A stretch of DNA of 64,000 nt from a phage: sequence record PZ049338.1. One strand, written 5' to 3'. The translations under genes and the position numbers were made by a program. Under the pieces are notes generated by a model. The model was not told the DNA's origin and did no database searches. It saw only the letters and a program-made list of their open reading frames with translations. Positions 16,736-62,977 of this stretch are shown here, piece after piece. Within the stretch, counting starts at the first letter, position 1. The number at the start of each line of letters is the position of its first letter.

Positions 16736-16754
16736 GAGCCTTCGGGCTCTTTTC
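16735..16754 (+). terminator. intrinsic terminator (AGAGCC ttcg GGCTCT + TTTTC)
   Basis: hairpin with UUCG loop and T-run directly after stop codon. Confidence 0.65.
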
Positions 16755-24085: not shown

Positions 24086-24110
24086 AGGGCTCCTTCGGGA
24101 GCCTTTTTTC
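24086..24110 (+). terminator. intrinsic terminator (GGGCTCC ttcg GGAGCC + TTTTTT)
   Basis: read directly. Confidence 0.75.
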
Positions 24111-29962: not shown

Positions 29963-29992
29963 GAGACGAAAAAGGCACCCGAAGGTGCCCTC
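29963..29992 (-). terminator. intrinsic terminator on minus strand (GGGCACC uucg GGUGCC + U-run)
   Basis: read directly. Confidence 0.65.
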
Positions 29993-29997
29993 TTAAA

Positions 29998-31476: not shown

Positions 31477-32046
31477 TTAACTCTGGAAGTTTACTGATTC
31501 TCTGTCAATGTTAGCGACTAATTGACTTCGAATACGATGGAGACTGACGTAAATGTTATTTGAAGACATGCCATACTTATTGGCAACATCTTTAGTCGTG
31601 AGGTTCTTCAGGTAAACATCGGTGAACAATTCACGTTCTGATTCCTTAAGAGTCTCAAAAGCTCTCTGAACAAACGAGGAAGCTTCATCGGCTAGTAACT
31701 CACGAACAGGGTCAGTTAACCCATTATCATGGCATTCAAATTCGAGGACATTATCGTACATCTCCGTATCAACTCTGTCGAACTCTCGGCGTACATAACC
31801 ATAACGAACATTGTTCGCAATAGTACCTATAACACCGCCTAACTTATCCCACTGGATTCTGTCCCAATACTGCCAAATCCTTAGCAGAGTTTCTTGAGCC
31901 AAATCTTCAGCCAGATGGTAATCTTTTTCCATGTAGTAGAATTGTTTCTGGAGAGGTTTCCAGAACTCTTCGTACAACTCTTCAAAAGTATATGTTTCTC
32001 GTTTTGGAGTAGGGGCACTAATTCTCTTAGCCATCATACATTCCAT
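31477..32046 (-). CDS. ECF-type sigma factor (regions 2 and 4)
   Basis: DLAQETLLRIWQYWDRI (region 2-like) and LTTKDVANKYGMSSNNIYVSLHRIRSQL (region 4 HTH). Confidence 0.7.
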   Translation of the reverse strand: MECMMAKRISAPTPKRETYTFEELYEEFWKPLQKQFYYMEKDYHLAEDLAQETLLRIWQYWDRIQWDKLGGVIGTIANNVRYGYVRREFDRVDTEMYDNVLEFECHDNGLTDPVRELLADEASSFVQRAFETLKESERELFTDVYLKNLTTKDVANKYGMSSNNIYVSLHRIRSQLVANIDRESVNFQS

Positions 32047-32050
32047 GTAC

Positions 32051-32080
32051 TGATGAAAGAAAACCCCTCCGAAGAGGGGC
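32051..32080 (-). terminator. terminator-like hairpin (CCCCUC uucg GAGGGG + U-rich) immediately upstream of sigma factor gene
   Basis: read directly. Confidence 0.55.
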
Positions 32081-32275
32081 TAAGTTTCAAGCCGCACTTA
32101 AGGTAGCGAATCACCTTTACAAACAGCCTCTATCTGTTGCACACCGTTAGCATTAAGGTTCCGGGTTCTATATTATCGAGGATAAAGTATATGCTGATGG
32201 ACATATAGGCCATAGGTTATCTCCCAATTAGCCATCACCTTGGGGTAACATGCCCTTGCCGCTGTTTGAATTTAA

Positions 32276-38314: not shown

Positions 38315-38417
38315 ATCTACCTCAACATTACTAGCCGTACACCTGACGAATCAGTTGGGAGTTAAGTCGGCATTCGTAGTTATCCTTGCCGCCTCCGAAG
38401 AGGCAGCGATGTAGGTC

Positions 38418-38684: not shown

Positions 38685-38935
38685 TTTGCTGCTCCATTAG
38701 CATTAGGGAAATAACGTTCATAATTTCTTGCGTGGTTAGTTTCCAACTTAGCCACACATTGACGACAGAATGGATACAATCCACTGTCAGAGTTCGCAGA
38801 TTCATCGAAGTGATAAACCCCACGAAGTTGTTTACAGCACTTGCAAGTGATGCACTGGCCGTAAGTTGTTCTTGCGTAATTGTTAATTAAACGCTTAACC
38901 ATGTCCATTAGGACTCCAGAGACAAAAAAGGCCAC
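38681..38935 (-). CDS. Cys-rich hypothetical protein (84 aa)
   Basis: ORF track. Confidence 0.45.
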   Translation of the reverse strand: MAFFVSGVLMDMVKRLINNYARTTYGQCITCKCCKQLRGVYHFDESANSDSGLYPFCRQCVAKLETNHARNYERYFPNANGAAK

Positions 38936-39044
38936 CCGTAGGCAGCCTTGTGTTAACCTTCACCCCAGCCCGTATTAGAATCCATCGAATTCATCATACG
39001 TCCCAGTTCTCTTCACCAGCAGTGTAACCAATTGCATTCATTCG

Positions 39045-46635: not shown

Positions 46636-47310
46636 TTACAGAGTGTCATAGTAGTCTGCGCGATTATGCAGACACCAGTCACCCGACTCAACACGGTTAC
46701 TGTCGCCTTGGTCTTCATCAATGTGATAAATCCAAGCCTTTGCGAAGGAACCATCATCCAGTTGGATTTCAACCTGCGTACGGTTATAGAAACCATTCTC
46801 AGGGTCACAGGCACTGTACCCTTCCAGCATGTCGTATGCACCAGTCAGACCTTCCAGAGGTGCTTCAAATACATCAACAACAACCTGCTTGCCAGACTTG
46901 TTAGCCTTAAGGTTCACGGAAGGGAAGTAGGAGCCACCGTAGCGATATAAATCGAACTGGTCTACAGTCACACCCTTACTTACAAATTCACCGCCGCCAC
47001 GAGCGTTTACGTGGAAATTCTGCATGTTGCGACGCAGAGAGCCATAAGTTGCGATGAATACTTTACCGTCTGAAGGAATTACTAAGTTCTTTGACATTAC
47101 TTGTCCTGTTTTAGGTTGTAGATAATATTTAACTTCGACAAATCGCCATGTGTTCTGGAGGTTCTCTGCCATTTCTTTTGCTTCTGGGTAAGTTAAGCCA
47201 CAGCCAAGCTGATAACCTTCCTCACCCTTACTCATGCGACCAATCAGTAAATAACGAACTTCATGGTCACCTGTTAGTGGTTCTTTAATTGAGAGCTTCA
47301 TCTTATACAC
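46636..47310 (-). CDS. gamma-glutamyl cyclotransferase-like (AIG2/GGCT fold) domain protein
   Basis: FIATYGSLRR ... DMLEGY ... YNRTQV fits GGCT pattern. Confidence 0.55.
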   Translation of the reverse strand: MYKMKLSIKEPLTGDHEVRYLLIGRMSKGEEGYQLGCGLTYPEAKEMAENLQNTWRFVEVKYYLQPKTGQVMSKNLVIPSDGKVFIATYGSLRRNMQNFHVNARGGGEFVSKGVTVDQFDLYRYGGSYFPSVNLKANKSGKQVVVDVFEAPLEGLTGAYDMLEGYSACDPENGFYNRTQVEIQLDDGSFAKAWIYHIDEDQGDSNRVESGDWCLHNRADYYDTL

Positions 47311-47366
47311 TTCTCACCCCTTGTTATGTTCGACAAAGGCCACTCCGAAGAATGACCTTTAGCAAA

Positions 47367-47903
47367 TTACCAGAGCTTATTAAGAGCCAGATTATTAGTA
47401 ATCACTGGTGTGCTTTCGTAATCATCCAGAGATGTTGGGCCCATACTAATAGCACCATATCCAGTTACGTGAACACTTACACGGGTCATCTGGTCGAAGA
47501 ATTCCTTCATCTGAGACGGTTCTGTGATGTTCTTTCCAGCAACACCAAGAACCTGTACACGCTGACCAGAGGAGCGCAGACCCTTCTTAGTGACCACTGC
47601 CGTAACTGTCTGACCAACAACAGTGGGCTTAGTTAATACCTCAAAGAACACACCGGATATGTCAGTTACACCCTGTTCCATATGCATTGTTGCATAGTTA
47701 ACTTTGTAGGTGTTTGGAACTTCATATACACGGGTAGATTTGAAAGTAGTACCAATGTAGTTATCTGCATTGAAGTCACGGGAACGGCTACGACGTTCAG
47801 CCTCAATGAGAAGTGATTGGTAATAACCTTCCAGTATTTCACCAACACCTTTACGAGTTGTACTTAACCCGATTACTCGGGAATATCCAATAATTAAGAA
47901 CAT
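47367..47903 (-). CDS. hypothetical protein (178 aa)
   Basis: ORF track; 23-bp repeated element immediately upstream. Confidence 0.5.
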   Translation of the reverse strand: MFLIIGYSRVIGLSTTRKGVGEILEGYYQSLLIEAERRSRSRDFNADNYIGTTFKSTRVYEVPNTYKVNYATMHMEQGVTDISGVFFEVLTKPTVVGQTVTAVVTKKGLRSSGQRVQVLGVAGKNITEPSQMKEFFDQMTRVSVHVTGYGAISMGPTSLDDYESTPVITNNLALNKLW

Positions 47904-50344: not shown

Positions 50345-50389
50345 TGTTGTTACCTTTTCAGTGGGTTGTTGGAAATCAATATTATAAGA

Positions 50390-50409
50390 GGCTCCGAAGA
50401 ACCTCTGAA
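50390..50409 (-). other. conserved intergenic hairpin (RNA AGAGGUUC uucg GAGCCUCU)
   Basis: UNCG tetraloop hairpin; family member. Confidence 0.5.
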
Positions 50410-50417
50410 ATATGGAC

Positions 50418-50657
50418 TTAAGCGGCCATCAATGCGATGAGTTTGCGGTTTTCATTCCTGAGAGCACCAATCTCATCATCAATAAGACTGTAGTGGTACG
50501 ATAACATTTGGAGGGACATTTCACCTACATCTGAGGCAGTCATCTGCTCGACGTAAGTTGCCTTCTCCTCAATCAGCCGTCCAATGTCTTTGTTGTTTTG
50601 TGCTATTAAATCCATCGCCTCTTTACGAGCAGCTCTTGCGACTTCATTATCAGCCAT
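50418..50657 (-). CDS. hypothetical protein (79 aa)
   Basis: ORF track. Confidence 0.45.
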   Translation of the reverse strand: MADNEVARAARKEAMDLIAQNNKDIGRLIEEKATYVEQMTASDVGEMSLQMLSYHYSLIDDEIGALRNENRKLIALMAA

Positions 50658-50881
50658 TAGACTTCAATCCCCTTCAGACGGCAGTAGTCAGCCAGCATCA
50701 TGTGGATTGATACCGGATAAGGGATAGCCACTTTAACACCTTTTTGCTCTTCGTAAAGACCAATCTGGTAGGCACGAACTGCACGGAGCATATCAGAACC
50801 TAAATCAGTCATTGGAACTTTACGAATCACAACCGGGTTCTCCAGACGAAGAACCTTAACTTCTTTCATTGAATCATCCAT
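50657..50881 (-). CDS. hypothetical protein (74 aa)
   Basis: ORF track. Confidence 0.45.
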   Translation of the reverse strand: MDDSMKEVKVLRLENPVVIRKVPMTDLGSDMLRAVRAYQIGLYEEQKGVKVAIPYPVSIHMMLADYCRLKGIEV

Positions 50882-50896
50882 ATTCTCATTTACCTA

Positions 50897-52888
50897 TCAT
50901 TTCTTGTTTGAAACTTTACCCGGAACCTTTCCAGTTTCCAGAACTTTTGAACAGCGTTCACAGCAAGGTGTACTGCCGATAAACTCTGTAACCGCTGCTT
51001 TGTTGAAAGGAATCTTGTAGTTGCAGAAAGAGCAAGTGTTCATCTCTTCCCACTGAACCAGAGTCACTTTCATACCGTTTTGCAGAGACTTGCGATAAGT
51101 CAGGATTGGTCGGACATTACTGCCGCTATTCTTCCGCGCTTCCACAATCTCATTCTGGAGAGCTTTCAGTTCACTCTTCAGATGCTTGTTACTGTGGCAC
51201 TGTAAGCAGAGGCTCTCAACCTCTGATTCAGCATCAACAGGTAACTCTTCTTGACAGTTGATACATTCAAAACGAAGCGAGTCGTCAGAGGACGTCTTTA
51301 CACCATCAACTAACCCCGCATCTACACAACCACCACAATAGGCGTAATCATGATAGATTGTTGAGTCTGCCACGAAATCGAACGGTATTGGAGAGCCACA
51401 GTTTCCGCAGCAATTGTAAGACCCGTTTCCCTCCCATTCCTTTTTTGTGACTACAGTTCCGTCACGAGTTGTGTCCATTGTGTAACCATCATCTTCCTCT
51501 TCTTCGAGTTCAGAGAAGTCACCAATTGAAACACCGGGAGTGGTAAGAGTTAGAGCCGGCGGGGTACGATTGTTCTTGACAGTGTTGAACTCTGTCAGAA
51601 TATCATTGATATCTTCATCTAACGAACCTTCATCATCCAAATCCAATGTTGAAGGAATTAGGGTCTCACCTTGTGGTGAAACATCAGATACGATGATAGT
51701 CAGGATGTAGTTTGATTCGTAACAAGAGATAATCTTGCCTTCGAACATACCACCATCGGTGTACATTTCCAGAGGAACGCCATGACCCTGAACCTCAATG
51801 TAAGCGCCTTCACCTATCCAACCGGTAAGTTGACCTTTCTGAGGATTCTTAGGATACGGTTCGTACTGATACGCTTCGAACACCATACGTTCATGCATCT
51901 TGTATGGAACCTGATGCACTTCCAGAAGTTCGTTAAGCTGCTTGTACTTGTTGCTCACTGAATCAGGGACACCAATGTGAGAAGGCTCAACGTTGCTTCG
52001 ATTAACGCTGCTGCGAGAAGGATTGTTATAAACACGCGACGAGCCGTAGGTGTCATAACGGTCTGAAAAGTAGTCATCATACGACTGGTAGGAATTGCCC
52101 CAGTAGCGCGATTGGTATACCGTTTGAAACACAGGCAGCTCGTGCTTGATTTCCTCCTTAAATACCAGACCATCAGTTGCATCAAATACATACTGAGTTC
52201 CGACTTCGAGTTCAAACTCTTTGTCGAAAGTTGGGTTCCACTTCTTACGGGACATAATCCACTTGAGCATGTCCTTCTCAGAAGCACCATACCAGTCACC
52301 ACCAGTGGTCTTCATCATGTAGAATGGACGCTCGTCGTTACGCAGGAAGTTCAGCGTATTCAGCTTAGCGTCATGCCACACCAGAACGAATGCACCATGC
52401 AATTTCTTGATGGTTTCTTCGATACCGATAGTTGCGATTGAATGGCAAACGTTCTCACTGTCCACTTCAAACTGCTCATGGTCAGGGAGTAGGCTTTGGT
52501 TTACTAATGAGCCGTTGTGAACCAGAGTGATATGTCCACATTGGAATGGGTGGGCGTTCTTGTCAACCACAGCTCCAGCAGTTGCATAGCGGTTGTGACC
52601 AACAATGAATCGAGGGTACGACACTGATGTTGTTTTAACACCGAGGTTGTTAACATTCTCAGAACGATGCTGAGCAATATCTTTCCACAGAGTTGAACGA
52701 AGGAAAATGTCACTTGGTACAGCTTTCTTAGCCGTCTTCAAGAAGGCATCCTGCTGATACGGCTTGTAATAAGCCATCACCCCAGTTGAATGGTCGCCTC
52801 GGAACACATCGGCATACAACATCTGCTCGAAACGCTCGAGGTTAGTTGAAGATAAGGCGGTTCCACCTACAAATACAATTCCACACAT
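50897..52888 (-). CDS. class II glutamine amidotransferase (Ntn, Cys2 nucleophile) with long Cys-rich Zn-ribbon C-terminal extension
   Basis: N-terminus MCGIVF as in PurF/GlmS-type amidotransferases; C-terminal clusters CCGNCGS, CINCQ...CLQCH, CSFCN...CCERC. Confidence 0.7.
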   Translation of the reverse strand: MCGIVFVGGTALSSTNLERFEQMLYADVFRGDHSTGVMAYYKPYQQDAFLKTAKKAVPSDIFLRSTLWKDIAQHRSENVNNLGVKTTSVSYPRFIVGHNRYATAGAVVDKNAHPFQCGHITLVHNGSLVNQSLLPDHEQFEVDSENVCHSIATIGIEETIKKLHGAFVLVWHDAKLNTLNFLRNDERPFYMMKTTGGDWYGASEKDMLKWIMSRKKWNPTFDKEFELEVGTQYVFDATDGLVFKEEIKHELPVFQTVYQSRYWGNSYQSYDDYFSDRYDTYGSSRVYNNPSRSSVNRSNVEPSHIGVPDSVSNKYKQLNELLEVHQVPYKMHERMVFEAYQYEPYPKNPQKGQLTGWIGEGAYIEVQGHGVPLEMYTDGGMFEGKIISCYESNYILTIIVSDVSPQGETLIPSTLDLDDEGSLDEDINDILTEFNTVKNNRTPPALTLTTPGVSIGDFSELEEEEDDGYTMDTTRDGTVVTKKEWEGNGSYNCCGNCGSPIPFDFVADSTIYHDYAYCGGCVDAGLVDGVKTSSDDSLRFECINCQEELPVDAESEVESLCLQCHSNKHLKSELKALQNEIVEARKNSGSNVRPILTYRKSLQNGMKVTLVQWEEMNTCSFCNYKIPFNKAAVTEFIGSTPCCERCSKVLETGKVPGKVSNKK

Positions 52889-52944
52889 GGATAATAATCC
52901 TCTAAGTTCATTTAAATGGGGCCGAAGCCCCTGTTTGTTAATAC

Positions 52945-54612
52945 TTAAGCGATATGGTCGTTATCTGGCTCATAATCATCGTCTTCTTCAATATCGTCAT
53001 CTTCAGATGATTCATACATATCGTAATCACCACCACGACGAGGTACAGGGACTTCATTACGAGCTTCACGGTTCTCTTCATTACGCATGTCTACGAACTG
53101 ACGGTAGAAGTTTCCGAACAGACGAGAACGTTGAGCCTGATTGGTTTCGTAGATGAACCAATCAATGTCAAAAGTGATGCCAAGCATATCGCACTTCCAA
53201 CGCAACTCAGCTAACCAACGGAATGTCAGCATTGGAGGGCGGGTGTTCTCCAACAACCAAGTGCCATTACTGCGGGTTTCCAGATTGATTCGCAGGTGTT
53301 CCCAATAGCGAGGTTCCAGATAGAAATTTGTACGATGACTTGAATCATCCTCGGCAGATTTCACAGTGTGAACGTAAGCACTGAGTTTGCGTAGGGTTGA
53401 CATTGAAATCACTTCATATGCCAGTTTGTAGCCAATGTCCAAATCTTCTTCGAAGTTCTGAACAACCTTCGGCAGACCCTTACGAATTGCGCTGTGAATC
53501 GGCAATGTTGATAGGTACTCAATGAAGTCACTATCAGTACCTTCGAAGTTCACCGCCAGTTCCTTCAGTGATAAGAAGCGGTTAGTCAGGCGAATAATGC
53601 TGCCCTTACGCCACTTGGCCTCACTAATACGGAATTCAACTGAACCAAAACTACTCATCGGTAACAAGTTCAGTGAAGTGTACTTATCCCATTCACGGGT
53701 TACACGATTAGTGAAATCGTGGTTGTCCAGATGCCAGTTGTTAGCCAGAGTAGCTAACTGCTCCTGTGCAAAACCAAGAGCAACACAGAAGTTGTTCTTG
53801 TAACGATGCCAACCAGAGCAGCGGAACAGTACACGCTCATAAACAATATACGCAAGAATCATGCGCTTCAGTTGAGCGACACTCAAATCACGTACATCAA
53901 TGTGAACGTGGGTGGAGCAACGCCAAGATGTATCTGGCGTATGACGGAACAGGAAGGAGTCGATTTCCAGGGATGCTGCATAGAGGTCACGACCACCCCA
54001 AGGGGATGAACATACAAACTCCATACCTGAGTTACGAAGTGAACCATCTAGCTTTGCTTCCCAATACTGGAAAGTTGGCTCATCACTGAGGTGAATCTCT
54101 TCGAGTTCAATCTCAATACCTGCCAGATGTGTTCCAACAATTAAAGGATGACCCTGAATAGTTGGGTAGGTTGCACGTTGCCCGTAAATCTGTGCAATAT
54201 TCATGTTATTCGATACCTCTACGTTTCCGGAGATGAAGCCGTTGCGGCTTGGATTATTAACGCTTCCGTGTCTCTGGTTACCAATCTCTTCCCGTAGATT
54301 GTCTCGTGTGTATGCGTGTTGACCTCTTTGAAGTCCAGTGAAGAGGCTAGGTCTCTGGCTTTCGCGCTCCATTCTCCGCTGTCTTGCTTGTTCATCAGCA
54401 CGGTTATTCAACCACGTCATGAAGGCACTATCTTCTGACTGAGCTACCCCCTGATTCACTATTGGCACAGGTGGCTCTTCGAAAGCTTGAGATACAACAC
54501 TTTCTGTTACATTCGGAGGTTGATAATTAGCCCATCTGTCCATGTGTACAGTGGCTTCAACGTCGAAGAAACCCCCAGTTAATCCTGGGGAGTTGTTACT
54601 GTTATTTGGCAC
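52945..54612 (-). CDS. glutamine-synthetase-fold carboxylate-amine ligase (GCS2/YbdK-like amidoligase), 555 aa
   Basis: GIEIELEE, THVHIDV, FGSVEFRIS match recalled YbdK motifs GIELEM, HVHVG, FGTVEVRVMD. Confidence 0.55.
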   Translation of the reverse strand: MPNNSNNSPGLTGGFFDVEATVHMDRWANYQPPNVTESVVSQAFEEPPVPIVNQGVAQSEDSAFMTWLNNRADEQARQRRMERESQRPSLFTGLQRGQHAYTRDNLREEIGNQRHGSVNNPSRNGFISGNVEVSNNMNIAQIYGQRATYPTIQGHPLIVGTHLAGIEIELEEIHLSDEPTFQYWEAKLDGSLRNSGMEFVCSSPWGGRDLYAASLEIDSFLFRHTPDTSWRCSTHVHIDVRDLSVAQLKRMILAYIVYERVLFRCSGWHRYKNNFCVALGFAQEQLATLANNWHLDNHDFTNRVTREWDKYTSLNLLPMSSFGSVEFRISEAKWRKGSIIRLTNRFLSLKELAVNFEGTDSDFIEYLSTLPIHSAIRKGLPKVVQNFEEDLDIGYKLAYEVISMSTLRKLSAYVHTVKSAEDDSSHRTNFYLEPRYWEHLRINLETRSNGTWLLENTRPPMLTFRWLAELRWKCDMLGITFDIDWFIYETNQAQRSRLFGNFYRQFVDMRNEENREARNEVPVPRRGGDYDMYESSEDDDIEEDDDYEPDNDHIA

Positions 54613-55196
54613 TGTGGTAATTCCTTGGCTAAAAAGCGAACCAAGTGACGTGCTTCAGCAGCCACTTCGATAGCATCGTCAGAGAGGAACTTACCGATGC
54701 TCACATCCTTGTAGCGTAAGTCTGAATTGACACGCAGGAATACCCCTCCAATAACTTCAGGATACTCATTTTTGTTGAAGAACGCTTTGATGTTCTCCCA
54801 ACTAAAGCGGAAGTTGTTACAGATACGGCTGTGGGTTAACCCCTTCTTAGTTGAGCGATTTGCACGATAACTGACCCATACGAAGTTGTTTCCAATCTTC
54901 ACGAATGCAGGCTCAGGTAATTCTAGAACCAGATTCGGGTCAGTATGAGAGATGGATACGTTACGGTAATTACCATCGTCACCCATCGTCGTTCCGTGGA
55001 ATACCAGAGCATCTTCAGCTTCCTGAGAATACGCTGCACGGTCACGCTGTGCTCGCGTCATTTCACTGAAATCCAGAACAGTATTGTCATGGGTCACTGC
55101 GTCAATCTGGAAGGGCTGGACTTTACCAGCCTCATCCTTCAGACCAACGTAAGTCCCAGAGTAATACATTGAGAAATCGTCGGTAAGCATTAGCAA
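54579..55196 (-). CDS. hypothetical protein (205 aa) within amidoligase cluster
   Basis: ORF track; overlaps both neighbours. Confidence 0.5.
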   Translation of the reverse strand: MLMLTDDFSMYYSGTYVGLKDEAGKVQPFQIDAVTHDNTVLDFSEMTRAQRDRAAYSQEAEDALVFHGTTMGDDGNYRNVSISHTDPNLVLELPEPAFVKIGNNFVWVSYRANRSTKKGLTHSRICNNFRFSWENIKAFFNKNEYPEVIGGVFLRVNSDLRYKDVSIGKFLSDDAIEVAAEARHLVRFLAKELPQCQITVTTPQD

Positions 55197-55993
55197 ATCT
55201 CCATCACACGTACATATTCTTTAGCCAGAGCTTTGTCATTGTTGTTAATGACACGCTGTACTTCTTCCGGGTTGATGATTGATGCGATGCCACGGAAATC
55301 ACCACGCATCATAGCGAATGCTTTCTGAGCTTGTTCCCAAGCCCATTTGCGATTCTCTTTGTTCATAATCCAGAAGTTGGACATTACACGATATTCGATA
55401 CCGTATGGCTTGAAGCGGCAAGCACCAGCTTTACCATACAGTTCTTTTCGACGGTCATCACCGTCCAGCAGGAGGGCGGGCAGTCCCAGGAAGTAGTCAC
55501 ACATCACGCCGAGAACTTTCTGACTTTCGGACGTCACAGTAGTAACTGTATCGTAGCCAACGTGGATGTGACCACCTGCTGTACGAAGACCGGGGTCAGC
55601 AGCTTGAGGTTTAGGATTACGCATACCAGTCAGTGCGTTGTAATCAGGCTCACAGCCGAATACGAATGCATCTTTGTGGAAGCGTTCCAGTTCAGCAGCG
55701 GTGTAGATATGAGAACTGACATTCATTGCCAGTTCATGACCTACATAACCAACTGCTTCTTCACAGTATTTGATACCATCAACAATGTTCTTGTCGAAGG
55801 ATTCAAAATCACTATGCGGGTTGGTGTCGAACTCAACCAGCACGTTATCTTCCTGAATACGAACGTCTTCCGTGACTGCTTTCTTGTTGTACTTGTCCGC
55901 TCCAAGCAGACCTGAAACAGAACTGATAGCCCCTGTGCTCGAATCACGAGTGAACAACTCAGGGTCGGTAGCCAACAAAATAACATTAGACAT
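55190..55993 (-). CDS. glutamine-synthetase-fold carboxylate-amine ligase (GCS2/YbdK-like amidoligase), 267 aa
   Basis: GGHIHVGYD and YGIEYRVMS match recalled YbdK HVHVG and VEVRVMD. Confidence 0.6.
   Translation of the reverse strand: MSNVILLATDPELFTRDSSTGAISSVSGLLGADKYNKKAVTEDVRIQEDNVLVEFDTNPHSDFESFDKNIVDGIKYCEEAVGYVGHELAMNVSSHIYTAAELERFHKDAFVFGCEPDYNALTGMRNPKPQAADPGLRTAGGHIHVGYDTVTTVTSESQKVLGVMCDYFLGLPALLLDGDDRRKELYGKAGACRFKPYGIEYRVMSNFWIMNKENRKWAWEQAQKAFAMMRGDFRGIASIINPEEVQRVINNNDKALAKEYVRVMEIC
55533..55544 (-). other. strand-specific 12-mer, exact copy 4 (intragenic)
   Basis: exact 12-mer. Confidence 0.6.
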
Positions 55994-56013
55994 TTCGTTT
56001 TCCTTAAAGAGGG

Positions 56014-57150
56014 TTAATATTTAGGGTTGTAACCGTTTGCTTCTGCGAAAGCAGCCAAAGCAGCAATTGCAGCTTCAGCATCTCTCTTGTTCATGTCACT
56101 ATGAACCGGACTGTATGGGTGGTCTTGCGAACCAGATGTTGGGCCTGCAATGTAGAAACCAACAACACTGTTCCATTCTTGCACGCCTGGGATTACTTCA
56201 TCACCAGCGATACTGAAAGCATCAACCATCTTACGGTAGCGAATTGCGTTAGAATGGTCAGTATCAATATCACCAAATGTATCACGCTCACGCGCTACAT
56301 CACGGGAATTGGTTCTCCAGTTCCAGTAAATACCCTTGTAGCGGTCATCAAACACCACTTCAAGACTTTTAAAGTGCGAGTCACGATAGTAACCACGCTG
56401 ATTCTTCCACGTATCCTGCACGTAGTCGAACTTGTCAACACGCTGATGGAGGAGGTTAATCAGGCCTTGAGAACCAATGGTGTCCGGAGAGAACCAGTTA
56501 TACTCACCAGTACGAATTGGTTGATAATACTTATCGACCTTGCCCGAGAATGCACTCTTGTTAACAGTGATGTTAAAGAAGTGCGCGATGATGGCAGAAA
56601 AACGTCGCGTGTATCCACAATGCAACGCCTCTTTATAAGCGGTGACGAATCCACCATAGTTACAGAGGTTGCGGAACAATGACATTGCCAACATAACTTC
56701 GTCAGCTTTGCGCTTGCCAATGTGGAAACGAATTACGCCAAGCTTTGGATGAACCTTCACCCAAGACTTATACATTGGCAACTCTTCCAGCAATAACTTC
56801 ATTTCACTGAAATAGTTTGGGCCACAAGTTTTAAGCATGTACTTGACGCGTGATTGTTGATTTTCGATTTGGTAGAATTCCTCAGGATATTCACCATCGC
56901 CATGAGTATCCATTGGGGCAGACCACATGTGACTAATGCCATACTCAACTTCAAAATCGATGTGCTTCTGTTGGTGACCATCACGCTCACGGATATTACT
57001 GGCTTCTACCGGAGTGAAATGTTGTGTCGGGCTGTCAGGGTTAATTAGGCGCTGCTCATGCCAACGATTAACACCCATTTTACCGAAACAAATACCTTGG
57101 GCACGGAAGGATTTTCCGTCCTTAAACATTACGCGATATTGAACTGACAT
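56014..57150 (-). CDS. hypothetical protein (378 aa) within amidoligase cluster
   Basis: ORF track. Confidence 0.5.
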   Translation of the reverse strand: MSVQYRVMFKDGKSFRAQGICFGKMGVNRWHEQRLINPDSPTQHFTPVEASNIRERDGHQQKHIDFEVEYGISHMWSAPMDTHGDGEYPEEFYQIENQQSRVKYMLKTCGPNYFSEMKLLLEELPMYKSWVKVHPKLGVIRFHIGKRKADEVMLAMSLFRNLCNYGGFVTAYKEALHCGYTRRFSAIIAHFFNITVNKSAFSGKVDKYYQPIRTGEYNWFSPDTIGSQGLINLLHQRVDKFDYVQDTWKNQRGYYRDSHFKSLEVVFDDRYKGIYWNWRTNSRDVARERDTFGDIDTDHSNAIRYRKMVDAFSIAGDEVIPGVQEWNSVVGFYIAGPTSGSQDHPYSPVHSDMNKRDAEAAIAALAAFAEANGYNPKY

Positions 57151-58107
57151 TTAGTTACCTTTTACATGTTCGTTAATGAGAGCAATGCAATTGAGGAGTT
57201 CTTCTTCATCAAGCTGATGGTAGCTTGAGGAATTATTACGAATCAGGCTCTCCAGTGTCTGACTGGTTGGTGAATCTGATGGAGCACCTTGTACATCCAT
57301 GAGAATATCCTTTAGGTCTGCTTCATGACCTATACGCTCGAAGATAGGTGCTGGTTCACCTTCCCCATCGTAGGTGGTCTCCATCGTACCATCACGGCCA
57401 TAGCCGCTTGCAGTGGAACCCCACTCACCTTGCCATGCGTGTCCCAGACGACCTTCCATAATCATAATAATGTCATGGATTTCAGTATCATCTTGGAACA
57501 GTTCAGAGTCATCACTGCATTGATACCAGTAACGAACCTCACCTTTCCAATTCGCATTGCCATTAAACATCATGGAGTAGATGAAGGCTTCTTTAGGTGA
57601 GTAACCTTTGTTACGAAGGAGTTCGTACAGTCGGTTACATGCTGTGTATTCAATCAAGTTACGGAGCATCATTGCACCGACGATTGTTACCTGCATTTGC
57701 TGACCGCATAGAGGCCATGTAATACGAACGTTGGCATTACCCCAATTGCCACTATATTCAGATACCTTATCAAGGTTCTCTACAGTCACATTGCTGTAGA
57801 ATTGTGGGAATGCTTCCATGATTGCAACTAAATCAGCTTCAATCATCCCCTTAACCGCGTCAGAATTACAACGAGGCACTGGTAACCAAATTAAGAAGTG
57901 AATGTTATCTGATTCGAAGTCGGGGTTTGCGCAGTAAACACTTTCTGCATCCTCCCAATCAAAATCTTCATCATCTTCATTTACAACATGCCCTAATCCA
58001 TTAACGTAATGCTCGTTCCATTGATTGATGTAGGCCATGAAGCCAAAGCATGGGCGAGAGTGACGGAGTTCCTTCCCTTGTCCGTTAACAGTGATAGCTT
58101 GTACCAT
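57151..58107 (-). CDS. hypothetical protein (318 aa), first gene of the cluster
   Basis: ORF track; hairpin and RBS upstream. Confidence 0.5.
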   Translation of the reverse strand: MVQAITVNGQGKELRHSRPCFGFMAYINQWNEHYVNGLGHVVNEDDEDFDWEDAESVYCANPDFESDNIHFLIWLPVPRCNSDAVKGMIEADLVAIMEAFPQFYSNVTVENLDKVSEYSGNWGNANVRITWPLCGQQMQVTIVGAMMLRNLIEYTACNRLYELLRNKGYSPKEAFIYSMMFNGNANWKGEVRYWYQCSDDSELFQDDTEIHDIIMIMEGRLGHAWQGEWGSTASGYGRDGTMETTYDGEGEPAPIFERIGHEADLKDILMDVQGAPSDSPTSQTLESLIRNNSSSYHQLDEEELLNCIALINEHVKGN

Positions 58108-58169
58108 TTGTTTGTTACCTTAGAGAGTTAAAGCTTAGAGCCCTCAATTAAGAGGGCGACCTTGAATTA

Positions 58170-58541
58170 TTATTCAGTTACTTGCAGCTTGGAAGATTCC
58201 CAAAGCTGGTCTACCAGATGAACGCGCTTAACTGCGTCGTCAATGAATTGGTTGAGTTGAATACGCTGGAACTTCTCAGCCTGACGAGAAAGCAGGAGCT
58301 CTTGGTACTGAGCTTTCAGGAAGTTGCGAGTTACCACCAGAGTTTTCTGACGATGCCCAGCTTTGCCCAGACGGATTTCAGCATTAATAACACTGAGTTG
58401 GTCGCTGATTGATTTGCGTAGGACTTTCGCCGCAGACACTTCCAGATTAAAACGCTTAAGGTCTTTACGAGCGTTAGTCAGTGCTGAGCCTTCAGATTTC
58501 AGGATTGCTTCGATAGTTGCGATATTACCAATCTTATTCAT
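58170..58541 (-). CDS. hypothetical protein (123 aa)
   Basis: ORF track. Confidence 0.45.
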   Translation of the reverse strand: MNKIGNIATIEAILKSEGSALTNARKDLKRFNLEVSAAKVLRKSISDQLSVINAEIRLGKAGHRQKTLVVTRNFLKAQYQELLLSRQAEKFQRIQLNQFIDDAVKRVHLVDQLWESSKLQVTE

Positions 58542-58986
58542 TGCTTTTACCCTTAGGTTTGTGGAGTTTTAGGAAATAATGGTTACGATATTTAAACGCT
58601 TTCTTACCTTTAGCCCAATAAGGTCTATCAGTACCACTGTAGAAGTGGGTGTAGCGATACTTGGGTTTATAACCGGGCTTCATCACCTTGCTGGCTAAGA
58701 ACATTGCCTGTGCATAAGCTGCCTTCTCTTGACTCGTTTGTGGGTGAGTCTTGAAGACCTTCTTTTGCATAGTCAGCAAACCGTTGAAGTCTTTGTGTTT
58801 AAGGCGTTTTGTCCAATCGAACTGACTCTTTTGCAGAACAACTTTACAAGCAGTATCTGGGTAACGTTCATCAGTGACACGAGTCGCTATAACATCAGCA
58901 ACTAATTCCATGCCCTTGTCACCCTCGCCTCCGGCCTCCGTATATATTGTTAATGTAAGTGCTAATAAGCACGCTGCAAAGCTCAT
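58534..58986 (-). CDS. SleB-like cell-wall hydrolase with signal peptide
   Basis: N-terminal hydrophobic leader; TEAGGEG...VIATRV...YPDT...VVLQKSQF fits recalled SleB/CwlJ hydrolase pattern. Confidence 0.55.
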   Translation of the reverse strand: MSFAACLLALTLTIYTEAGGEGDKGMELVADVIATRVTDERYPDTACKVVLQKSQFDWTKRLKHKDFNGLLTMQKKVFKTHPQTSQEKAAYAQAMFLASKVMKPGYKPKYRYTHFYSGTDRPYWAKGKKAFKYRNHYFLKLHKPKGKSNE

Positions 58987-59018
58987 TGGGGATTGCTCTC
59001 CTAGTGAGGTTAGTTAAT

Positions 59019-59037
59019 GGCTCTCGTAAGAACCCTT
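59019..59037 (-). other. conserved intergenic hairpin (GGCTCTCGTAAGAACCCTT family)
   Basis: family member. Confidence 0.45.
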
Positions 59038-59047
59038 AGTAACTTCG

Positions 59048-59311
59048 CTACGAAGCAGTTATTTCAACTGATTTAAATACCTTCTCAACAGGTAGGTTGT
59101 GGGCCATATTTCGGGCTTCACCTGTTTCGAGATTAACAACTTTCATGTACTCTTTACCACGGCAAACACCACCGAGTAGCATATATACACGGTGCAATGG
59201 GCACCCTTCGAGGGCAAATACAGAGCCCATATGTAACTCACCAACAGTGATAGTTGTTGGATTAAGGTTAGTGGTAATTTTAACCTTTGTCATTTTCGAC
59301 AATCTCCACAC
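59048..59311 (-). CDS. hypothetical protein (87 aa)
   Basis: ORF track. Confidence 0.45.
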   Translation of the reverse strand: MWRLSKMTKVKITTNLNPTTITVGELHMGSVFALEGCPLHRVYMLLGGVCRGKEYMKVVNLETGEARNMAHNLPVEKVFKSVEITAS

Positions 59312-59759
59312 GAGGACAGTATTTATCTTTATTGCTGCGATACATCACAACAATCCAGTTTGAATCACGACGCTCTTTCTTACGTCGTTTCTTTTCAGCA
59401 CGAGTTTCATATGTGCCAGTTCGGTAGTCACGGTATATTCCACGAAGGTAGTAGAATAACCAACCAACACCAAATGATACACCAGCCAAAGCAGCAAAAG
59501 ATAAGGCACCAAGAGCAGGGGCAGCGAACCATGTCCACCAATTGAATGACAAAATATTCTCATGTCCAAGGAGAGAGCCACCAACCATTGACAGTGCAGC
59601 GTACAATACTGCAATGAGACCTGATAGCATCACAAAATGAAATACTGTCCGCCAGAAGTATTCGCAGAAGTTGCTCATGTTATCCCAATGATAACTGGAA
59701 AGGCTTGACATTTTTTTGTTAAACTTGTGCAGCCAACCGTTCTTATTAACCTTAATCAT
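59280..59759 (-). CDS. membrane protein (2-3 predicted TM segments)
   Basis: hydrophobic stretches VFHFVMLSGLIAVLYAALSMVGG and WFAAPALGALSFAALAGVSFGVGWLFYY. Confidence 0.5.
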   Translation of the reverse strand: MIKVNKNGWLHKFNKKMSSLSSYHWDNMSNFCEYFWRTVFHFVMLSGLIAVLYAALSMVGGSLLGHENILSFNWWTWFAAPALGALSFAALAGVSFGVGWLFYYLRGIYRDYRTGTYETRAEKKRRKKERRDSNWIVVMYRSNKDKYCPRVEIVENDKG

Positions 59760-60025
59760 TACGCATCCCCGATATGTTTACATTCAACTTTAACACGGAC
59801 AACCTGAGTATCAGCCAGTGGTGCGCTGACATTACCAGTCTCGATGTTAGTCAGGTGTACGCGGTGGTATCCCGGAAGAGCATTAATACTAACATTTGAG
59901 GAGTTGGCTACATCACCAACTAGGTAAAGAGTGTCGCCATTAACAAAACGAACAACTTCACCGGGTTTTGCTTGACAAAGACCAATAACTTTTGGCATTG
60001 GTACTTTTGATTTTGTCACTTTCAT
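59759..60025 (-). CDS. hypothetical protein (88 aa)
   Basis: ORF track. Confidence 0.45.
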   Translation of the reverse strand: MKVTKSKVPMPKVIGLCQAKPGEVVRFVNGDTLYLVGDVANSSNVSINALPGYHRVHLTNIETGNVSAPLADTQVVRVKVECKHIGDA

Positions 60026-60327
60026 TTATGTAACCTCAGGAATACATGTAACACAGTGGATGCACGGTTAGTAACTGAATTAACCGAACGGTTTAGCTTC
60101 TTTGCAATCCAATCGCGAGGACGAATACCAGCCCACTTGCGAATGAAGTCATCATCCTTGTCAGTGTAAGGTTGACGCTGTTTTGCACGGGAGATTTTGA
60201 ATCGTGAGCAGGCACCAATGATAACCGTCACAGTAGTACCCATCTTTTCAGCCACTTCTTCAACTGAATACTTCTTAATCAAACGTTCTAAACGCTTGAT
60301 GTTCTTATTTGTCCAAGTAAATTGCAT
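60022..60327 (-). CDS. small basic protein, possible HTH regulator (101 aa)
   Basis: AGGAGG SD; motif and hairpin upstream. Confidence 0.5.
   Translation of the reverse strand: MQFTWTNKNIKRLERLIKKYSVEEVAEKMGTTVTVIIGACSRFKISRAKQRQPYTDKDDDFIRKWAGIRPRDWIAKKLNRSVNSVTNRASTVLHVFLRLHK
60227..60238 (-). other. strand-specific 12-mer, exact copy 5 (intragenic)
   Basis: exact 12-mer. Confidence 0.6.
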
Positions 60328-60350
60328 ATGAACCTCCTAAGTATTTAATA

Positions 60351-60370
60351 AAGGGCTCCGTAGAACCCTT
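60351..60370 (-). other. conserved intergenic hairpin (RNA AAGGGUUC uacg GAGCCCUU)
   Basis: 8-bp stem with UACG tetraloop, then RBS. Confidence 0.5.
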
Positions 60371-60375
60371 GATAA

Positions 60376-60453
60376 TTACTCAGCATCAACAGTGAGTGAA
60401 ATGCCGAATGCGATTAGGGCAAGAACTACAGCCGCTATTGCATACCAATCCAT
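60376..60453 (-). CDS. micro-ORF, 25-aa hydrophobic peptide (MDWYAIAAVVLALIAFGISLTVDAE)
   Basis: Not in ORF track; strong AAGGAG SD 5 nt upstream of ATG. Confidence 0.3.
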   Translation of the reverse strand: MDWYAIAAVVLALIAFGISLTVDAE

Positions 60454-60597
60454 AATCACTCCTTATTCCATTTAACATTAAATGAGATAAGGCACGCCGC
60501 TGCCAGTGCAGTTTCAACAACAGCGATCACATGATTACCAACAGTCACATCGTATATCGCAAATCCCAACCAGAATGCTGTAAGGTACAGATATAGT

Positions 60598-61350
60598 TTA
60601 CGACTGGATAATGCTTTCTTGAGCCAGTTCATCTTTCACCTGTTTAAGTGTAAATGTATTGTCGTCACAATCAATACCAATAGGGCCGATAATACGGTAT
60701 TTAGTATTGCGAGTTTCAACAAAGAAAGTACCAACCTTCTCAGAGATATTTACTACACGGGAGGTACTGATTGACAACCCATCACGGAAAGGGTGATTTC
60801 CGTGAGTGTGGGTATCGCTCCAGATTCGACCAGTCATGTACCAGTTGCTATCATTGGACTTGTAAATGATAGCAGATGACAGTTTGGCGTCGAATTGTGG
60901 AATTGGTAATGGGACATAACCTTCACGCAGTATCGGATTTTGTTCATCCGGCATTTGAGTGAAAGGCTTCATCTCAAACATTATTTCAAAGTCACGAGCC
61001 CATTGGCGAATCCGTTTTGGATTTAAACCATTGACACGTTTGAAGTAACCCTGCTGATGTTCAGCACTGATTAATTCATATGACAAATCCAAATCCGTAC
61101 GATGAACAGTGGAACACATCATCATAAGGTATTCATGACGACCACACCACACGTAAAGAAGATGTCCAATCTCCTCTTTAGTGAAATCTGTCGCTTCCGC
61201 CAGACGGTCAGTGATACCAAGCGCCAGTGGTTCAGGGAAACGCTTGTAGAAAAGGATTGGGAACTTCTCAATAAGTTCCGGCATACGACGCTTATAGAAA
61301 TCGTACTGAACAGGGGTAACAGGGCGAAGTTTTACGCGTTGAGTTGTCAT
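60598..61350 (-). CDS. ProQ/FinO-domain-like RNA-binding protein with C-terminal extension
   Basis: LIEKFPILFYKRFPEPLALGI...LLYVWCGRHEYL...DLD resembles recalled ProQ/FinO N-terminal pattern. Confidence 0.5.
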   Translation of the reverse strand: MTTQRVKLRPVTPVQYDFYKRRMPELIEKFPILFYKRFPEPLALGITDRLAEATDFTKEEIGHLLYVWCGRHEYLMMMCSTVHRTDLDLSYELISAEHQQGYFKRVNGLNPKRIRQWARDFEIMFEMKPFTQMPDEQNPILREGYVPLPIPQFDAKLSSAIIYKSNDSNWYMTGRIWSDTHTHGNHPFRDGLSISTSRVVNISEKVGTFFVETRNTKYRIIGPIGIDCDDNTFTLKQVKDELAQESIIQS

Positions 61351-61613
61351 CTATTTGCCTCACATTTAATTACTTCGTTTATTTCTTCAGCCACACTCTT
61401 TGCCTCTTTATACGAGGTTAGTAAAGAGTTCCAGTAATCGTCACGGTATTCGTGAACAGTTAATGAACTAAGGCGCTCTTTGTAATACTTAGCGCGCTTT
61501 ATTGCATCACGTCCAGTTTCTATCATGTGACGTGTGTTTTTAAGTCTTTTATTTCTGACGAGATTCTTCGTCATCCATAAATTTACGCTTCTTGTGTTCA
61601 TAATGAACCTCAA
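61347..61613 (-). CDS. hypothetical protein (88 aa)
   Basis: ORF track. Confidence 0.45.
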   Translation of the reverse strand: MRFIMNTRSVNLWMTKNLVRNKRLKNTRHMIETGRDAIKRAKYYKERLSSLTVHEYRDDYWNSLLTSYKEAKSVAEEINEVIKCEANR

Positions 61614-61757
61614 TTGCGATGATTGTCACAACTGCAACAGCAGCGAGAGCGTATTCAATCCACCAGATATCAGCTAGGCTTGACATAGATGAAACCCTCA
61701 TAGGCGGTGTAGATGAACTTACGACCGAGCAGTGTGCCTACAAGCACGTACTTTTGT

Positions 61758-61946
61758 TTAGTGGAGTTGGACACTACGGCCCCCCTGATATGGTGAGGAG
61801 TTAGGATACCAGAACATGTTCTTACTGTTTGCAATCATACCGAATCCGGTAAGACCCATCAGTTGGTCACACAATGCTTGAGCGATTGATTGAGGCTTGG
61901 TGGTAGATTCACTAACCTTGAAACTGACTTTAGGCTCTTTGTACAT
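61758..61946 (-). CDS. small hypothetical protein (62 aa)
   Basis: ORF track. Confidence 0.4.
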   Translation of the reverse strand: MYKEPKVSFKVSESTTKPQSIAQALCDQLMGLTGFGMIANSKNMFWYPNSSPYQGGRSVQLH

Positions 61947-62164
61947 TACAAACCCCCATGTCTACATTTAACAAGAATGCCGTCAATGATGATGTAGTGT
62001 GAATGGTAAACCATTTCACGAGGTATATCACCATGTTCGCTGTTCCACTGGATAAAGTTCATCCGTTCCCAATCAATATATTGGGACTTCGCTTGAGCAA
62101 TTACTTCTTCCAGAGTGACTTCACCATAAGGACTCATTGACTTCATCATTTCACAAACTGACAT
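61946..62164 (-). CDS. hypothetical protein (about 73 aa)
   Basis: start trimmed to ATG 62164, 1 nt after upstream stop. Confidence 0.4.
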   Translation of the reverse strand: MSVCEMMKSMSPYGEVTLEEVIAQAKSQYIDWERMNFIQWNSEHGDIPREMVYHSHYIIIDGILVKCRHGGL

Positions 62165-62165
62165 A

Positions 62166-62477
62166 TCAACTCCTGTCAAAGTCGAGAACAACACTACCGT
62201 TCTTCTCAATCTCAGCCATAACTTTATTGTACTCATTCACTGTTCGAACGAGTGCAGCCTTCGGGTTGGCTTGCATGGCAATACCCATGACAACGCCTTG
62301 AACTTGAGGGTCAGTCACCCAAGTATTAACGATTGCTGATGCACAACCAACAATCTTAGGAATCACGCGTGGTTTACGCTTTTCAGTGCGAGCACTATCA
62401 CACTCGATAAGGTAAGTCATTATCAGTGCTTCAAGGGCTTCCTCATACTGAAAGAGTTTTTCATCTTGAACAATCAT
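62166..62477 (-). CDS. hypothetical protein (103 aa)
   Basis: ORF track. Confidence 0.45.
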   Translation of the reverse strand: MIVQDEKLFQYEEALEALIMTYLIECDSARTEKRKPRVIPKIVGCASAIVNTWVTDPQVQGVVMGIAMQANPKAALVRTVNEYNKVMAEIEKNGSVVLDFDRS

Positions 62478-62696
62478 TAGAAGTCCTTAAAATAGGAGGC
62501 GGGGACGAGCCGCCTTTACCCTATGAGTTAAGTTTGCATGTAAGACCTAACAATCGGATGCCTTCAGCGGAATAAGCGTTATGCGTATCCTGCACTAAAC
62601 TCCCGCCCCCTTAGTGGGCTGGGTGTATAAAGGGTAACGCCCTTATGGGCTAGTTACATGAATGTTAGTTTGATAGGAGATCTGACGTCCTATCTC

Positions 62697-62720
62697 AAAG
62701 GGCTCTCAGAAGAACCCTTT
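62697..62720 (-). other. conserved hairpin (AAAGGGCTCTCAGAAGAACCCTTT) in 250-bp intergenic region
   Basis: 10-bp stem; family member. Confidence 0.45.
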
Positions 62721-62728
62721 ACGATAGT

Positions 62729-62977
62729 TTACAGATGCAGCATGTACGTGTGCAGTGCATCGTGAGCCATCTCACGAGTTGGATAAGGCATAGACCAAAG
62801 TCCAGCTTCATCACTGTACACATAAGCACACTCATTACTTACCGGGTCACGCAGTTTGGTAATCAGTGGGTCAACATGCTCAACCACTATTGCACCGTGT
62901 GATGCTGCTTCTTGGAGGAGGTTTGCAGTATTACTTGTAACCCTCACACCTCCGAAGTATTGAAGATGTCTTGCCAT
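62729..62977 (-). CDS. hypothetical protein (82 aa)
   Basis: ORF track. Confidence 0.45.
   Translation of the reverse strand: MARHLQYFGGVRVTSNTANLLQEAASHGAIVVEHVDPLITKLRDPVSNECAYVYSDEAGLWSMPYPTREMAHDALHTYMLHL

Follow-up and report, generated by a model that had tools for sequence, protein, structure and literature searches.

The stretch of DNA analysed in this work (64,000 nucleotides (nt) of sequence record PZ049338.1, hereafter the window) derives from a phiEco32/7-11-like podophage and contains, between 50 and 63 kb, four short hairpins designated H1 to H4, all of which are encoded between genes of the minus strand. The hairpins are maintained by selection as RNA structures of the sense transcript at fixed intergenic positions, and the family to which they belong is larger than the initial annotation of this DNA had listed. 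By analogy with characterised stabilisers of messenger RNA (mRNA), H1-H4 may tentatively be regarded as intercistronic punctuation which acts post-transcriptionally on the stability or processing of the transcript and causes weak termination at most. With similar reserve we suggest that H4 is not free-standing but the first helix of a structured RNA of about 235 nt, apparently undescribed and potentially a stable or regulatory phage RNA. The four hairpins are as follows.

H1, 50387-50406, minus strand: AGAGGUUC-UUCG-GAGCCUCU, 8 bp; 11 nt after the stop codon and 42 nt before the gene for an ATP-grasp (RimK-like) ligase.
H2, 59019-59034, minus strand: GGUUCU-UACG-AGAGCC, 6 bp; 32 nt before the gene for an endolysin-like protein; the weakest of the four.
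H3, 60351-60370, minus strand: AAGGGUUC-UACG-GAGCCCUU, 8 bp, then UAUUAAAU; 23 nt before the gene for a D5-like regulator and 13 nt before its AGGAGG.
H4, 62696-62721, minus strand: UAAAGGGUUCU-UCUG-AGAGCCCUUUG, 11 bp; 7 nt after the stop codon; the same as helix P1 of the non-coding element described below.

Four elements of the GGCTC...GAACC type had been placed by the initial annotation between minus-strand genes, and all four are present on the minus-strand RNA, between open reading frames (ORFs) and in one orientation. A search of the 64 kb for GGCTC-N(2-8)-GAACC returns exactly these four sites, where about one would be expected by chance over both strands according to a rough estimate. 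The UUCG or UACG loops attributed to the whole group are present in H1 (UUCG), H2 and H3 (UACG) and not in H4, whose UCUG loop is not of the UNCG type; the loops of H4 orthologues are UACG, UUCG or UCCG, with one UUAG. The hairpins lie 7-13 nt past the upstream stop codon, with the exception of H3, found 85 nt past the nearest ORF of at least 35 amino acids (aa) in the gene map, and 23-42 nt ahead of the next start codon, with the exception of H4, which instead stands ahead of the non-coding element. A small hairpin, CUUCG-UAG-CGAAG (59043-59055), precedes H2 and overlaps the upstream stop codon.

The G+C-rich stems consist of 6-11 bp including three or four G-C pairs and have free energies of -5.5 to -13 kcal/mol, and the folding z-scores are -4.0, -1.0, -4.2 and -5.6 for H1 to H4, respectively. 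They share the apex YUC(U)-UNCG-(A)GAG, and most members of the family are capped by the very stable UNCG tetraloop, the loop-closing pair being C-G in H1, H3 and the hairpins at 47334, 52918 and 32062 listed below and U-A in H2 and H4. The antisense strands of H1, H3 and H4, the three tested, fold worse by 3.6-8 kcal/mol because the conserved U-G wobble turns into a C-A mismatch.

The region from 50 to 63 kb shows 97% identity to Salmonella phage PKM.Hi.22.6 and phage PKM.Lu.22.1 (Grimontviridae), and parts of it have more distant matches in podophages of the 7-11-like and phiEco32-like kinds. Phage 7-11 has an identical H1 (L124 16569-16588); in pSal-SNUABM-01 (L128 15823-15842) H1 reads AAGGGUUC-UUCG-GAGCCCUU, with two compensatory G-C/A-U swaps, and is flanked by -35-like and -10-like hexamers (TTAAAA, CATAAT) unlike those of the window (TTCAGA, TATAAT), and in Cronobacter phage A24 a UAGGGUG/CGCCCUA stem is found at the same position before the ATP-grasp gene; the ATP-grasp protein, used as a query for related loci, returned a single distant locus. 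At the position of H2 both 7-11 and pSal-SNUABM-01 have a hairpin of different sequence, the one in 7-11 being annotated as a terminator before the endolysin gene (L124 25684-25708) and having a U6 tail. The orthologue of H3 has a UUCG loop in 7-11 (L124 27303-27322) and an extra C-G pair in pSal-SNUABM-01 (L128 26880-26901). H4 has undergone compensatory changes in phiEco32, where it reads GGAUUCU-UACG-AGAGUCC, in L145 and in pSal-SNUABM-01, where two such swaps accompany a UCCG loop; its 7-11 orthologue is UUCG-looped, and in one metagenomic relative the U-G wobble of H4 is replaced by U-A.

In a BLAST comparison with 7-11, two short islands at hairpins, 47329-47379 (94%) and 60325-60383 (86%, H3), stand out from surrounding coding sequence that is 65-77% identical or cannot be aligned. 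No other apex is as common in this group of phages as UUC-UUCG-GAG / UCU-UNCG-AGA, which does not appear among the top motifs of unrelated viral contigs totalling 1.05 Mb. Scanning viral contigs for the 14-base core of H2 and H4 was discarded, as it returned more than 120 apparently mostly unrelated loci, about the number expected by chance, although it did pick up phage 7-11. The fixed U-G wobble, the strand bias described in the next paragraph and the compensatory changes together demonstrate selection on RNA structure, which bears out the earlier proposal that the hairpins form at the RNA level on the minus-strand transcript.

Throughout the window, C(UUCG/UACG)G hairpins with stems of 5 bp or more were counted 13 times on the transcribed strand and once on the antisense strand, compared with a mean of 0.34 and a maximum of 3 in 300 dinucleotide-preserving shuffles, and UUCG is the commonest loop among the intergenic sense-strand tetraloop hairpins. 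In most members of the set, 3-13 nt separate the upstream stop codon from the hairpin and 12-42 nt separate the hairpin from the next start codon. Besides the hairpins listed here, the set includes one at 19914 on the plus strand and one at 41872 on the minus strand. The related hairpins that had been noticed near 58140 and upstream of the sigma factor gene are both present.

58140-58157, minus strand: hexaloop hairpin grouped with the set, GCCCUC-UUAAUU-GAGGGC, 12 nt after the stop codon, with the next gene 32 nt further on.
52918-52931, minus strand: GGGGC-UUCG-GCCCC between amidoligase-like and glutamine-amidotransferase-like genes, with no U-tract.
47334-47361, minus strand: UAAAGGUCAUUC-UUCG-GAGUGGCCUUUG, preceded by GUAAUUUGC which holds the upstream stop codon.
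38928-38949, minus strand: terminator-like hairpin AAGGCUGCC-UACG-GGUGGCCUU, then UUUUGU (d = +21).
38388-38407, minus strand: intergenic hairpin GCUGCCUC-UUCG-GAGGCGGC, with no U-tract.
32062-32081, minus strand: canonical intrinsic terminator AGCCCCUC-UUCG-GAGGGGUU, then UUCUUU (d = +18, tail UUUUCUUU).
29969-29994, minus strand: terminator-like hairpin AAGAGGGCACC-UUCG-GGUGCCUUUUU (d = +7).
24086-24105, plus strand: terminator close to where the plus-strand late block ends, AGGGCUCC-UUCG-GGAGCCUU, then UUUUCG (d = +29).
16734-16751, plus strand: intergenic late-block hairpin AAGAGCC-UUCG-GGCUCUU (d = +0.2, borderline).

The hairpin at 47334 has the UUC-UUCG-GAG apex and the U-G wobble of H1 and H3, and covarying versions of it occur in pSal-SNUABM-01 and A24. 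UUCG-looped hairpins occupy the 58140 position in 7-11 (L124 24238-24257) and pSal-SNUABM-01 (L128 23500-23527).

The d values given above and below combine tail and energy scores after d'Aubenton-Carafa, computed with modern energy parameters. By this measure H1-H4 are non-terminators, scoring -25, -63, -12 and -24, respectively, and the sequences right after their stems, UUAUAAUAUU (H1), AUUAACUAAC (H2), UUUAUUAAAU (H3) and UUUGAGAUAG (H4), contain no U-run of the kind that directly follows the stem at 24086, 29969, 32062 and 38928, where d ranges from +7 to +29. The earlier statement that H1-H4 lack a clean U-run is therefore correct, and the claim that the hairpins are not simple terminators is supported for these four and fails for the hairpin ahead of the sigma factor gene. 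The latter gene (31477-32046, minus strand) matches the phage sigma-factor family phrog_1740 and begins 15-27 nt beyond the hairpin. Cronobacter phage A24 has GAGGCC-UUCG-GGCCUC-UUUAUUU ahead of its sigma gene, and a stem-loop with a GUUCGG loop, as well as a late primer-extension end, was described before sigma gene 47 of phage 7-11 by Lavysh et al. 2022 (PMC8948821), who proposed that the stem-loop affects the stability or processing of the sigma transcript. Since UUCG hairpins precede the sigma gene in these phages too, it is plausible that the hairpin gates sigma expression, as the initial annotation had supposed, an idea which is thus already in the literature. The stem-loop of 7-11 gene 47 resembles that of the window in belonging to the same phage family and in lying in the intergenic region directly before the sigma gene; it differs in that the hairpin of the window is followed by a clear U-tract and has the score of an intrinsic terminator. 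The 7-11 paper (PMC8948821) describes only this stem-loop and neither H1-H4 nor the rest of the set.

H4 opens a gene-free stretch of 250 nt (62478-62728) that is conserved above the level of the flanking genes. The conserved element within it consists of the following parts.

62488-62727, minus strand: conserved non-coding element of about 235 nt, beginning with H4 and ending in a terminator-like hairpin and a U-run.
62723-62727, minus strand: P1ext, CUAUC.
62696-62721, minus strand: P1, which is H4.
62672-62694, minus strand: P2, GAUAGGA/UCCUAUC, one nucleotide after P1.
62664-62668, minus strand: CUAAC, pairing with GUUAG in a helix that encloses a variable central domain.
62536-62551, minus strand: invariant 16-mer GUUAGGUCUUACAUGC.
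62497-62515, minus strand: covarying terminator-like hairpin, then the U-run.

Homologues of the element were found in 134 phage records belonging to Kuravirus, Suseptimavirus, the 7-11-like phages and the N4-like Gamaleyavirus, and the 17 distinct sequences among these approximately 134 GenBank homologues were used for covariation analysis. The consensus fold has compensatory changes in 7 of its 25 predicted pairs. In the alignment of P1 and P2, 97% of the cells are paired and both sides have changed in five pairs, two in H4 and three in P2, and the resulting covariation score was not reached by any of 500 shuffles. An alternative partner for the 5' half of P2 is a segment that lies upstream of P1; this pairing covaries as well, with few independent events. 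A covariance model of P1-P2 detects one orthologous copy per genome and no extra copies, and none in A24 or the Proteus phage. In the N4-like phages the element adjoins transfer RNA (tRNA) genes. There are at least two versions of the central domain, whose spread is independent of phage family. The element has evidently been exchanged among Kuravirus, Suseptimavirus, the 7-11-like Grimontviridae and the N4-like Gamaleyavirus.

A host origin of the element was rejected after no match was obtained in 5,426 E. coli or 185,579 bacterial and archaeal genomes, and the pattern GTTAGGTCTTACATGC-N-TCGNCCCC occurs in phage contigs only and not in bacterial genomes. Identity with a tRNA or transfer-messenger RNA (tmRNA) was rejected on a negative ARAGORN result, the program finding no such genes anywhere in the window. 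An Rfam search of 62400-62800 gave only noise at E <= 10, at the gathering threshold the entire window had zero matches, and no paper describing the element was found in the literature. As to its function, one possibility is that the element is the cognate RNA of the phage ProQ/FinO-domain protein introduced below; another is a cis-acting switch, which is conceivable because the 5' half of P2 can pair with either of two partners and both pairings covary.

One version of the central domain was observed in the window, phiEco32 and PhAPEC5, and the other version in EK010 and ECBP1. In a metagenome contig, L143 (OERT01002574.1), the 5' part is N4-like and the 3' part Suseptimavirus-like, a combination that could stem from natural recombination or be an assembly chimera. 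In EK010 (L129 ~1735-1755) the sequence AUUCU-UCCG-AGAGU directly follows the terminator of the element and has the UUCU-UNCG-AGAG apex and the U-G wobble of H2 and H4.

A gene encoding a 250-aa early protein (60598-61350, minus strand) lies about 1 kb downstream of the element. Its product has an N-terminal ProQ/FinO domain (PF04352, 37 bits versus a cut-off of 27). Homologues with 50% identity are present in 7-11 (gp122) and pSal-SNUABM-01, others occur in phages like Erwinia phage phiEa21-4, and a Suseptimavirus homologue with 30% identity is located, in EK010, likewise about 1 kb downstream of the element, whereas the part of phiEco32 that was examined yielded none. A small stand-alone protein of A24 and the Proteus phages matches residues 155-224. 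According to PMC9674577 and PMC7367173, FinO domains bind the base of a hairpin together with its 3' tail, and in these papers and PMC9977716 the ligands of ProQ/FinO proteins are stable hairpins recognised by shape at the stem base. Like such ligands, the H4 element ends in a terminator hairpin, and the phage encodes a FinO-domain protein; unlike H1-H4, most known ligands are terminators with 3' U-tails. We infer the protein as a candidate partner for the hairpins or the non-coding element.

Plus-strand genes occupy about 6.2 to 25.2 kb of the window, and from there to 64 kb the genes lie on the minus strand. Late promoters of the 7-11 type, GTAAG-N16-CACTA, are found on the minus strand at 46639, 44260, 39690 and 33148 and no further upstream, and matches to the bipartite 7-11 late-promoter consensus (GTAAtg-N16-aCTA) on the plus strand at 5907, 12440, 17546 and 23869; several of all these matches lie in or beside inter-ORF gaps. 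These promoters imply that the sigma factor of the phage is of the 7-11 rather than the phiEco32 type; the phiEco32-type AATGTAT motif is absent from the sense-strand intergenic regions of the window. The late-promoter matches also mark the early/late boundary near 46.6 kb, and since there is no phage-sigma promoter above about 46.6 kb on the minus strand, H1-H4 are placed in the early block. Phage-sigma promoters overlapping the hairpins were considered and rejected, as the 7-11-type promoters are located elsewhere. The early block of 7-11 is transcribed as a very long polycistronic RNA from two sigma-70 promoters at the far right end (PMC8948821). No transcriptome data for this phage group were found in the literature.

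The hairpins are carried by the leftward early and middle transcripts, in the short gaps that separate gene modules. By analogy with 7-11, the region of H1-H4 would be read as part of a long polycistronic RNA from distant sigma-70 promoters, and RNA polymerase would mostly read through the hairpins because they have no U-tract. After an endonucleolytic cut in the adjacent A+U-rich spacer, a hairpin could block 3'-to-5' exonucleases, so that the upstream segment survives, and could also serve the downstream segment as a protective 5' stem-loop; the modules of one transcript may thereby reach different steady-state levels. Additional weak termination may take place at H3 and perhaps H1; of the four, only H3, with its UUUAUU tail, might bring about appreciable termination. 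RNase III requires roughly two helical turns, and sites of the T7 type were taken to have about 20 bp or more of largely double-stranded RNA, while the stems have only 6-11 bp and H4 alone extends to 16 bp with mismatches; RNase III sites were therefore rejected, this enzyme being an improbable partner with stems so short.

Several points weigh against this stabilising or processing role. H2 is weak in both length and folding (6 bp, z = -1.0), and the UUUAUU tail of H3, together with a d value of only -12, makes genuine termination possible there. The use of modern energy parameters in the formula for the d values belongs here as well. The flanks of some hairpins are also conserved (UUAUCAA...UUUAUUAAAU around H3 and GUAAUUUGC before 47334), beyond the needs of a bare exonuclease block, which hints at a possible sequence-specific partner. 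Finally, no transcript-end or decay data for this phage or close relatives were found in the literature.

It is rather unlikely that H1-H4 are instead leaky intrinsic terminators or attenuators which lower transcription stepwise along the early operon and are possibly overridden by some antitermination mechanism. Their location just past stop codons, the H3 tail with the least negative d, the U6-tailed annotated terminator of 7-11 at the H2 position and a near-identical GGGCUC-UACG-GAGCCC annotated as a terminator in a Seuratvirus agree with this explanation, as does the suspicion of the authors of the 7-11 study that antitermination operates in the group (PMC8948821), but the tails of H1, H2 and H4 are poor (T = 1.1-2.5, d from -24 to -63), it is the hairpin and not the U-tract that is conserved at orthologous positions, and the genes past every hairpin still need to be expressed from the distant promoters. 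It is very improbable that the elements are double-stranded DNA palindromes bound as operators by a DNA-binding protein of the phage, such as the D5-like regulator whose gene follows H3. Similar half-sites, GGGTTC and GAGCCC, do form inverted repeats, one of them directly upstream of the predicted regulator gene, and symmetry-keeping changes would mimic covariation too. An operator would nevertheless have no need of the constant asymmetry observed, in which a T of the 5' arm faces a G of the 3' arm and the orientation is always that of transcription, nor of a centre constrained to UNCG on the sense strand; the 13 to 1 strand bias throughout the genome and the replacement of one hairpin by another of unrelated sequence at the same position are equally at odds with it, and the operator explanation was rejected on strand asymmetry.

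The remaining two alternatives concern a protein partner and promoter function. Recognition by a specific RNA-binding protein, either the phage FinO-domain protein or host ProQ, which would protect or remodel the RNA, seems distinctly unlikely, even though the UUC(U)-UNCG-(A)GAG apex with its fixed U-G wobble recurs at non-homologous intergenic sites as the top motif of the group and conservation of the islands at the hairpins exceeds that of the genes. The FinO-domain protein, of a kind that binds a hairpin base and 3' tail (PMC9674577, PMC7367173), is present in 7-11 and pSal-SNUABM-01, which both have H1, H3 and H4, and was not found in the examined region of phiEco32, which has neither H1 nor H3; this co-occurrence, however, involves about five lineages, the absence of U-tails from H1-H4 sets them apart from most known ligands, the stems covary in orthologues so that much of the sequence is not fixed, and phiEco32 and the N4-like phages have the H4 element with no FinO homologue detectable in the regions examined. 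A variant of the same explanation would make the H4-P2 two-hairpin module an antiterminator RNA that binds a factor or the polymerase. Improbable, and applicable chiefly to H1, is the explanation by cassettes like the PeSLs, or promoter-early stem-loops, of T4-like phages (an early sigma-70 promoter with a stem-loop between its -35 and -10 elements; Arbiol 2010, PMC2839356; Comeau 2014, PMC4122927), which would terminate or attenuate transcription, restart it and act as recombination points. H1 is placed exactly between TTCAGA and TATAAT (a perfect -10 hexamer; spacer 17 bp), the location in which a PeSL most often has its stem-loop (PMC2839356), and small ORFs abound in this early region; the 7-11 orthologue of H1 carries a sigma-70 promoter annotation in its record and was predicted as such a promoter by Guzina and Djordjevic (PMC4331800 Table 2), and promoter-like hexamers are kept in pSal-SNUABM-01 (TTAAAA-18-CATAAT). 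The 27-nt H1 core TTCAGAGGTTCTTCGGAGCCTCTTATA (50383-50409) is, moreover, 100% identical in the unrelated T7-like Dickeya phage Luksen (L126 1501-1527), where it follows an exonuclease gene and has the hexamers TTCAGA-17-TATAGT, implying transfer of the cassette, and homology ends at two of the hairpins, at H4 in the comparison with phiEco32 and at H3 in that with 7-11. On the other hand, only two of the five promoters predicted in 7-11, both before gene 151, gave primer-extension products (PMC8948821), and the H1 orthologue, one of the five, was not validated. Sequence reading found no acceptable -35/-10 pair at H2, H3 or H4, and sigma-70 promoters were rejected there on the hexamers. H1 has no AT-rich UP-like element and no dense repetition, recombination is not demonstrated, there are four related copies rather than many near-identical ones at ORFans or indel boundaries, and the differences of the window from PKM.Hi and PKM.Lu do not coincide with the hairpins.

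The H1 cassette of 27 nt is 96% identical in four sister phages of Luksen, and both the window-type phages and the Dickeya phage set were isolated in Denmark.

The stabilising or processing role proposed for H1-H4, with any protein partner such as host ProQ or the phage FinO-domain protein as a possible addition, has precedents. Stabilisers between bacterial cistrons include the REP stem-loops between malE and malF, and 5' stabilisers include the ompA leader. These are hairpins with no U-tract that block 3' exonucleases or RNase E entry and set differential mRNA levels, and the mechanism suggested here would be the same, although there is no sequence relationship and REP are host repeats bound by other factors. 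In phage T4, CUUCGG hairpins in intercistronic regions stabilise mRNA (Tuerk 1988 PNAS and Gorski 1985, as cited in PMC8948821), and, as far as this secondary account goes, they share with the hairpins of the window short UUCG/UACG-capped stems, a mainly intergenic location on the transcribed strand and very high stability, and have been linked to mRNA stabilisation, reverse-transcriptase stops and, in some cases, termination. The present hairpins differ in belonging to an unrelated podophage group, in the U-A rather than C-G loop-closing pair of H2 and H4, in the lineage-specific apex with its fixed wobble and in having orthologues that can be traced across genera by compensatory changes. They are a lineage-specific set within a kind long known from T4; what is new is the conserved element led by H4, which is absent from Rfam, and the phage-encoded ProQ/FinO-domain protein.

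The value of the hairpins is mostly one of annotation, as conserved RNA punctuation in a family with its own sigma factor and very long early transcripts. Such hairpins have been overlooked so far, the H1 orthologue of 7-11 being recorded as a promoter, and they offer precise mutation sites for asking how an early transcript of more than 17 kb is split into differently expressed modules. A structured RNA spread across unrelated podophage families, together with a FinO-domain protein in a lytic phage, could matter more, since the two provide a tractable entry to phage-encoded riboregulation and are the leads most worth following.

A few minor features were also recorded. An 8-bp hairpin on the minus strand at 50836-50855, GGUUCUUC-GUCU-GGAGAACC, opens with the family string GGUUCU and lies inside the first codons of the ORF 50657-50881. 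Between the sigma gene and the gene downstream of the 33148 promoter there is a gap of 229 nt (32047-32275, minus strand), which, ahead of the terminator, may contain a short ORF (about 27 codons; ribosome-binding site GGGAG near 32213). The motif GUAAUUUGC (47362-47370) supplies, with its UAA, the stop codon of the upstream gene in the window. In four phages it stands immediately before a UUCG hairpin at several positions that are not homologous, the further positions being 34403 and 13238 in 7-11 (L124), 33990 and 12529 in pSal-SNUABM-01 (L128) and 24497 in L139, and the combination looks like a repeated stop-plus-hairpin cassette.

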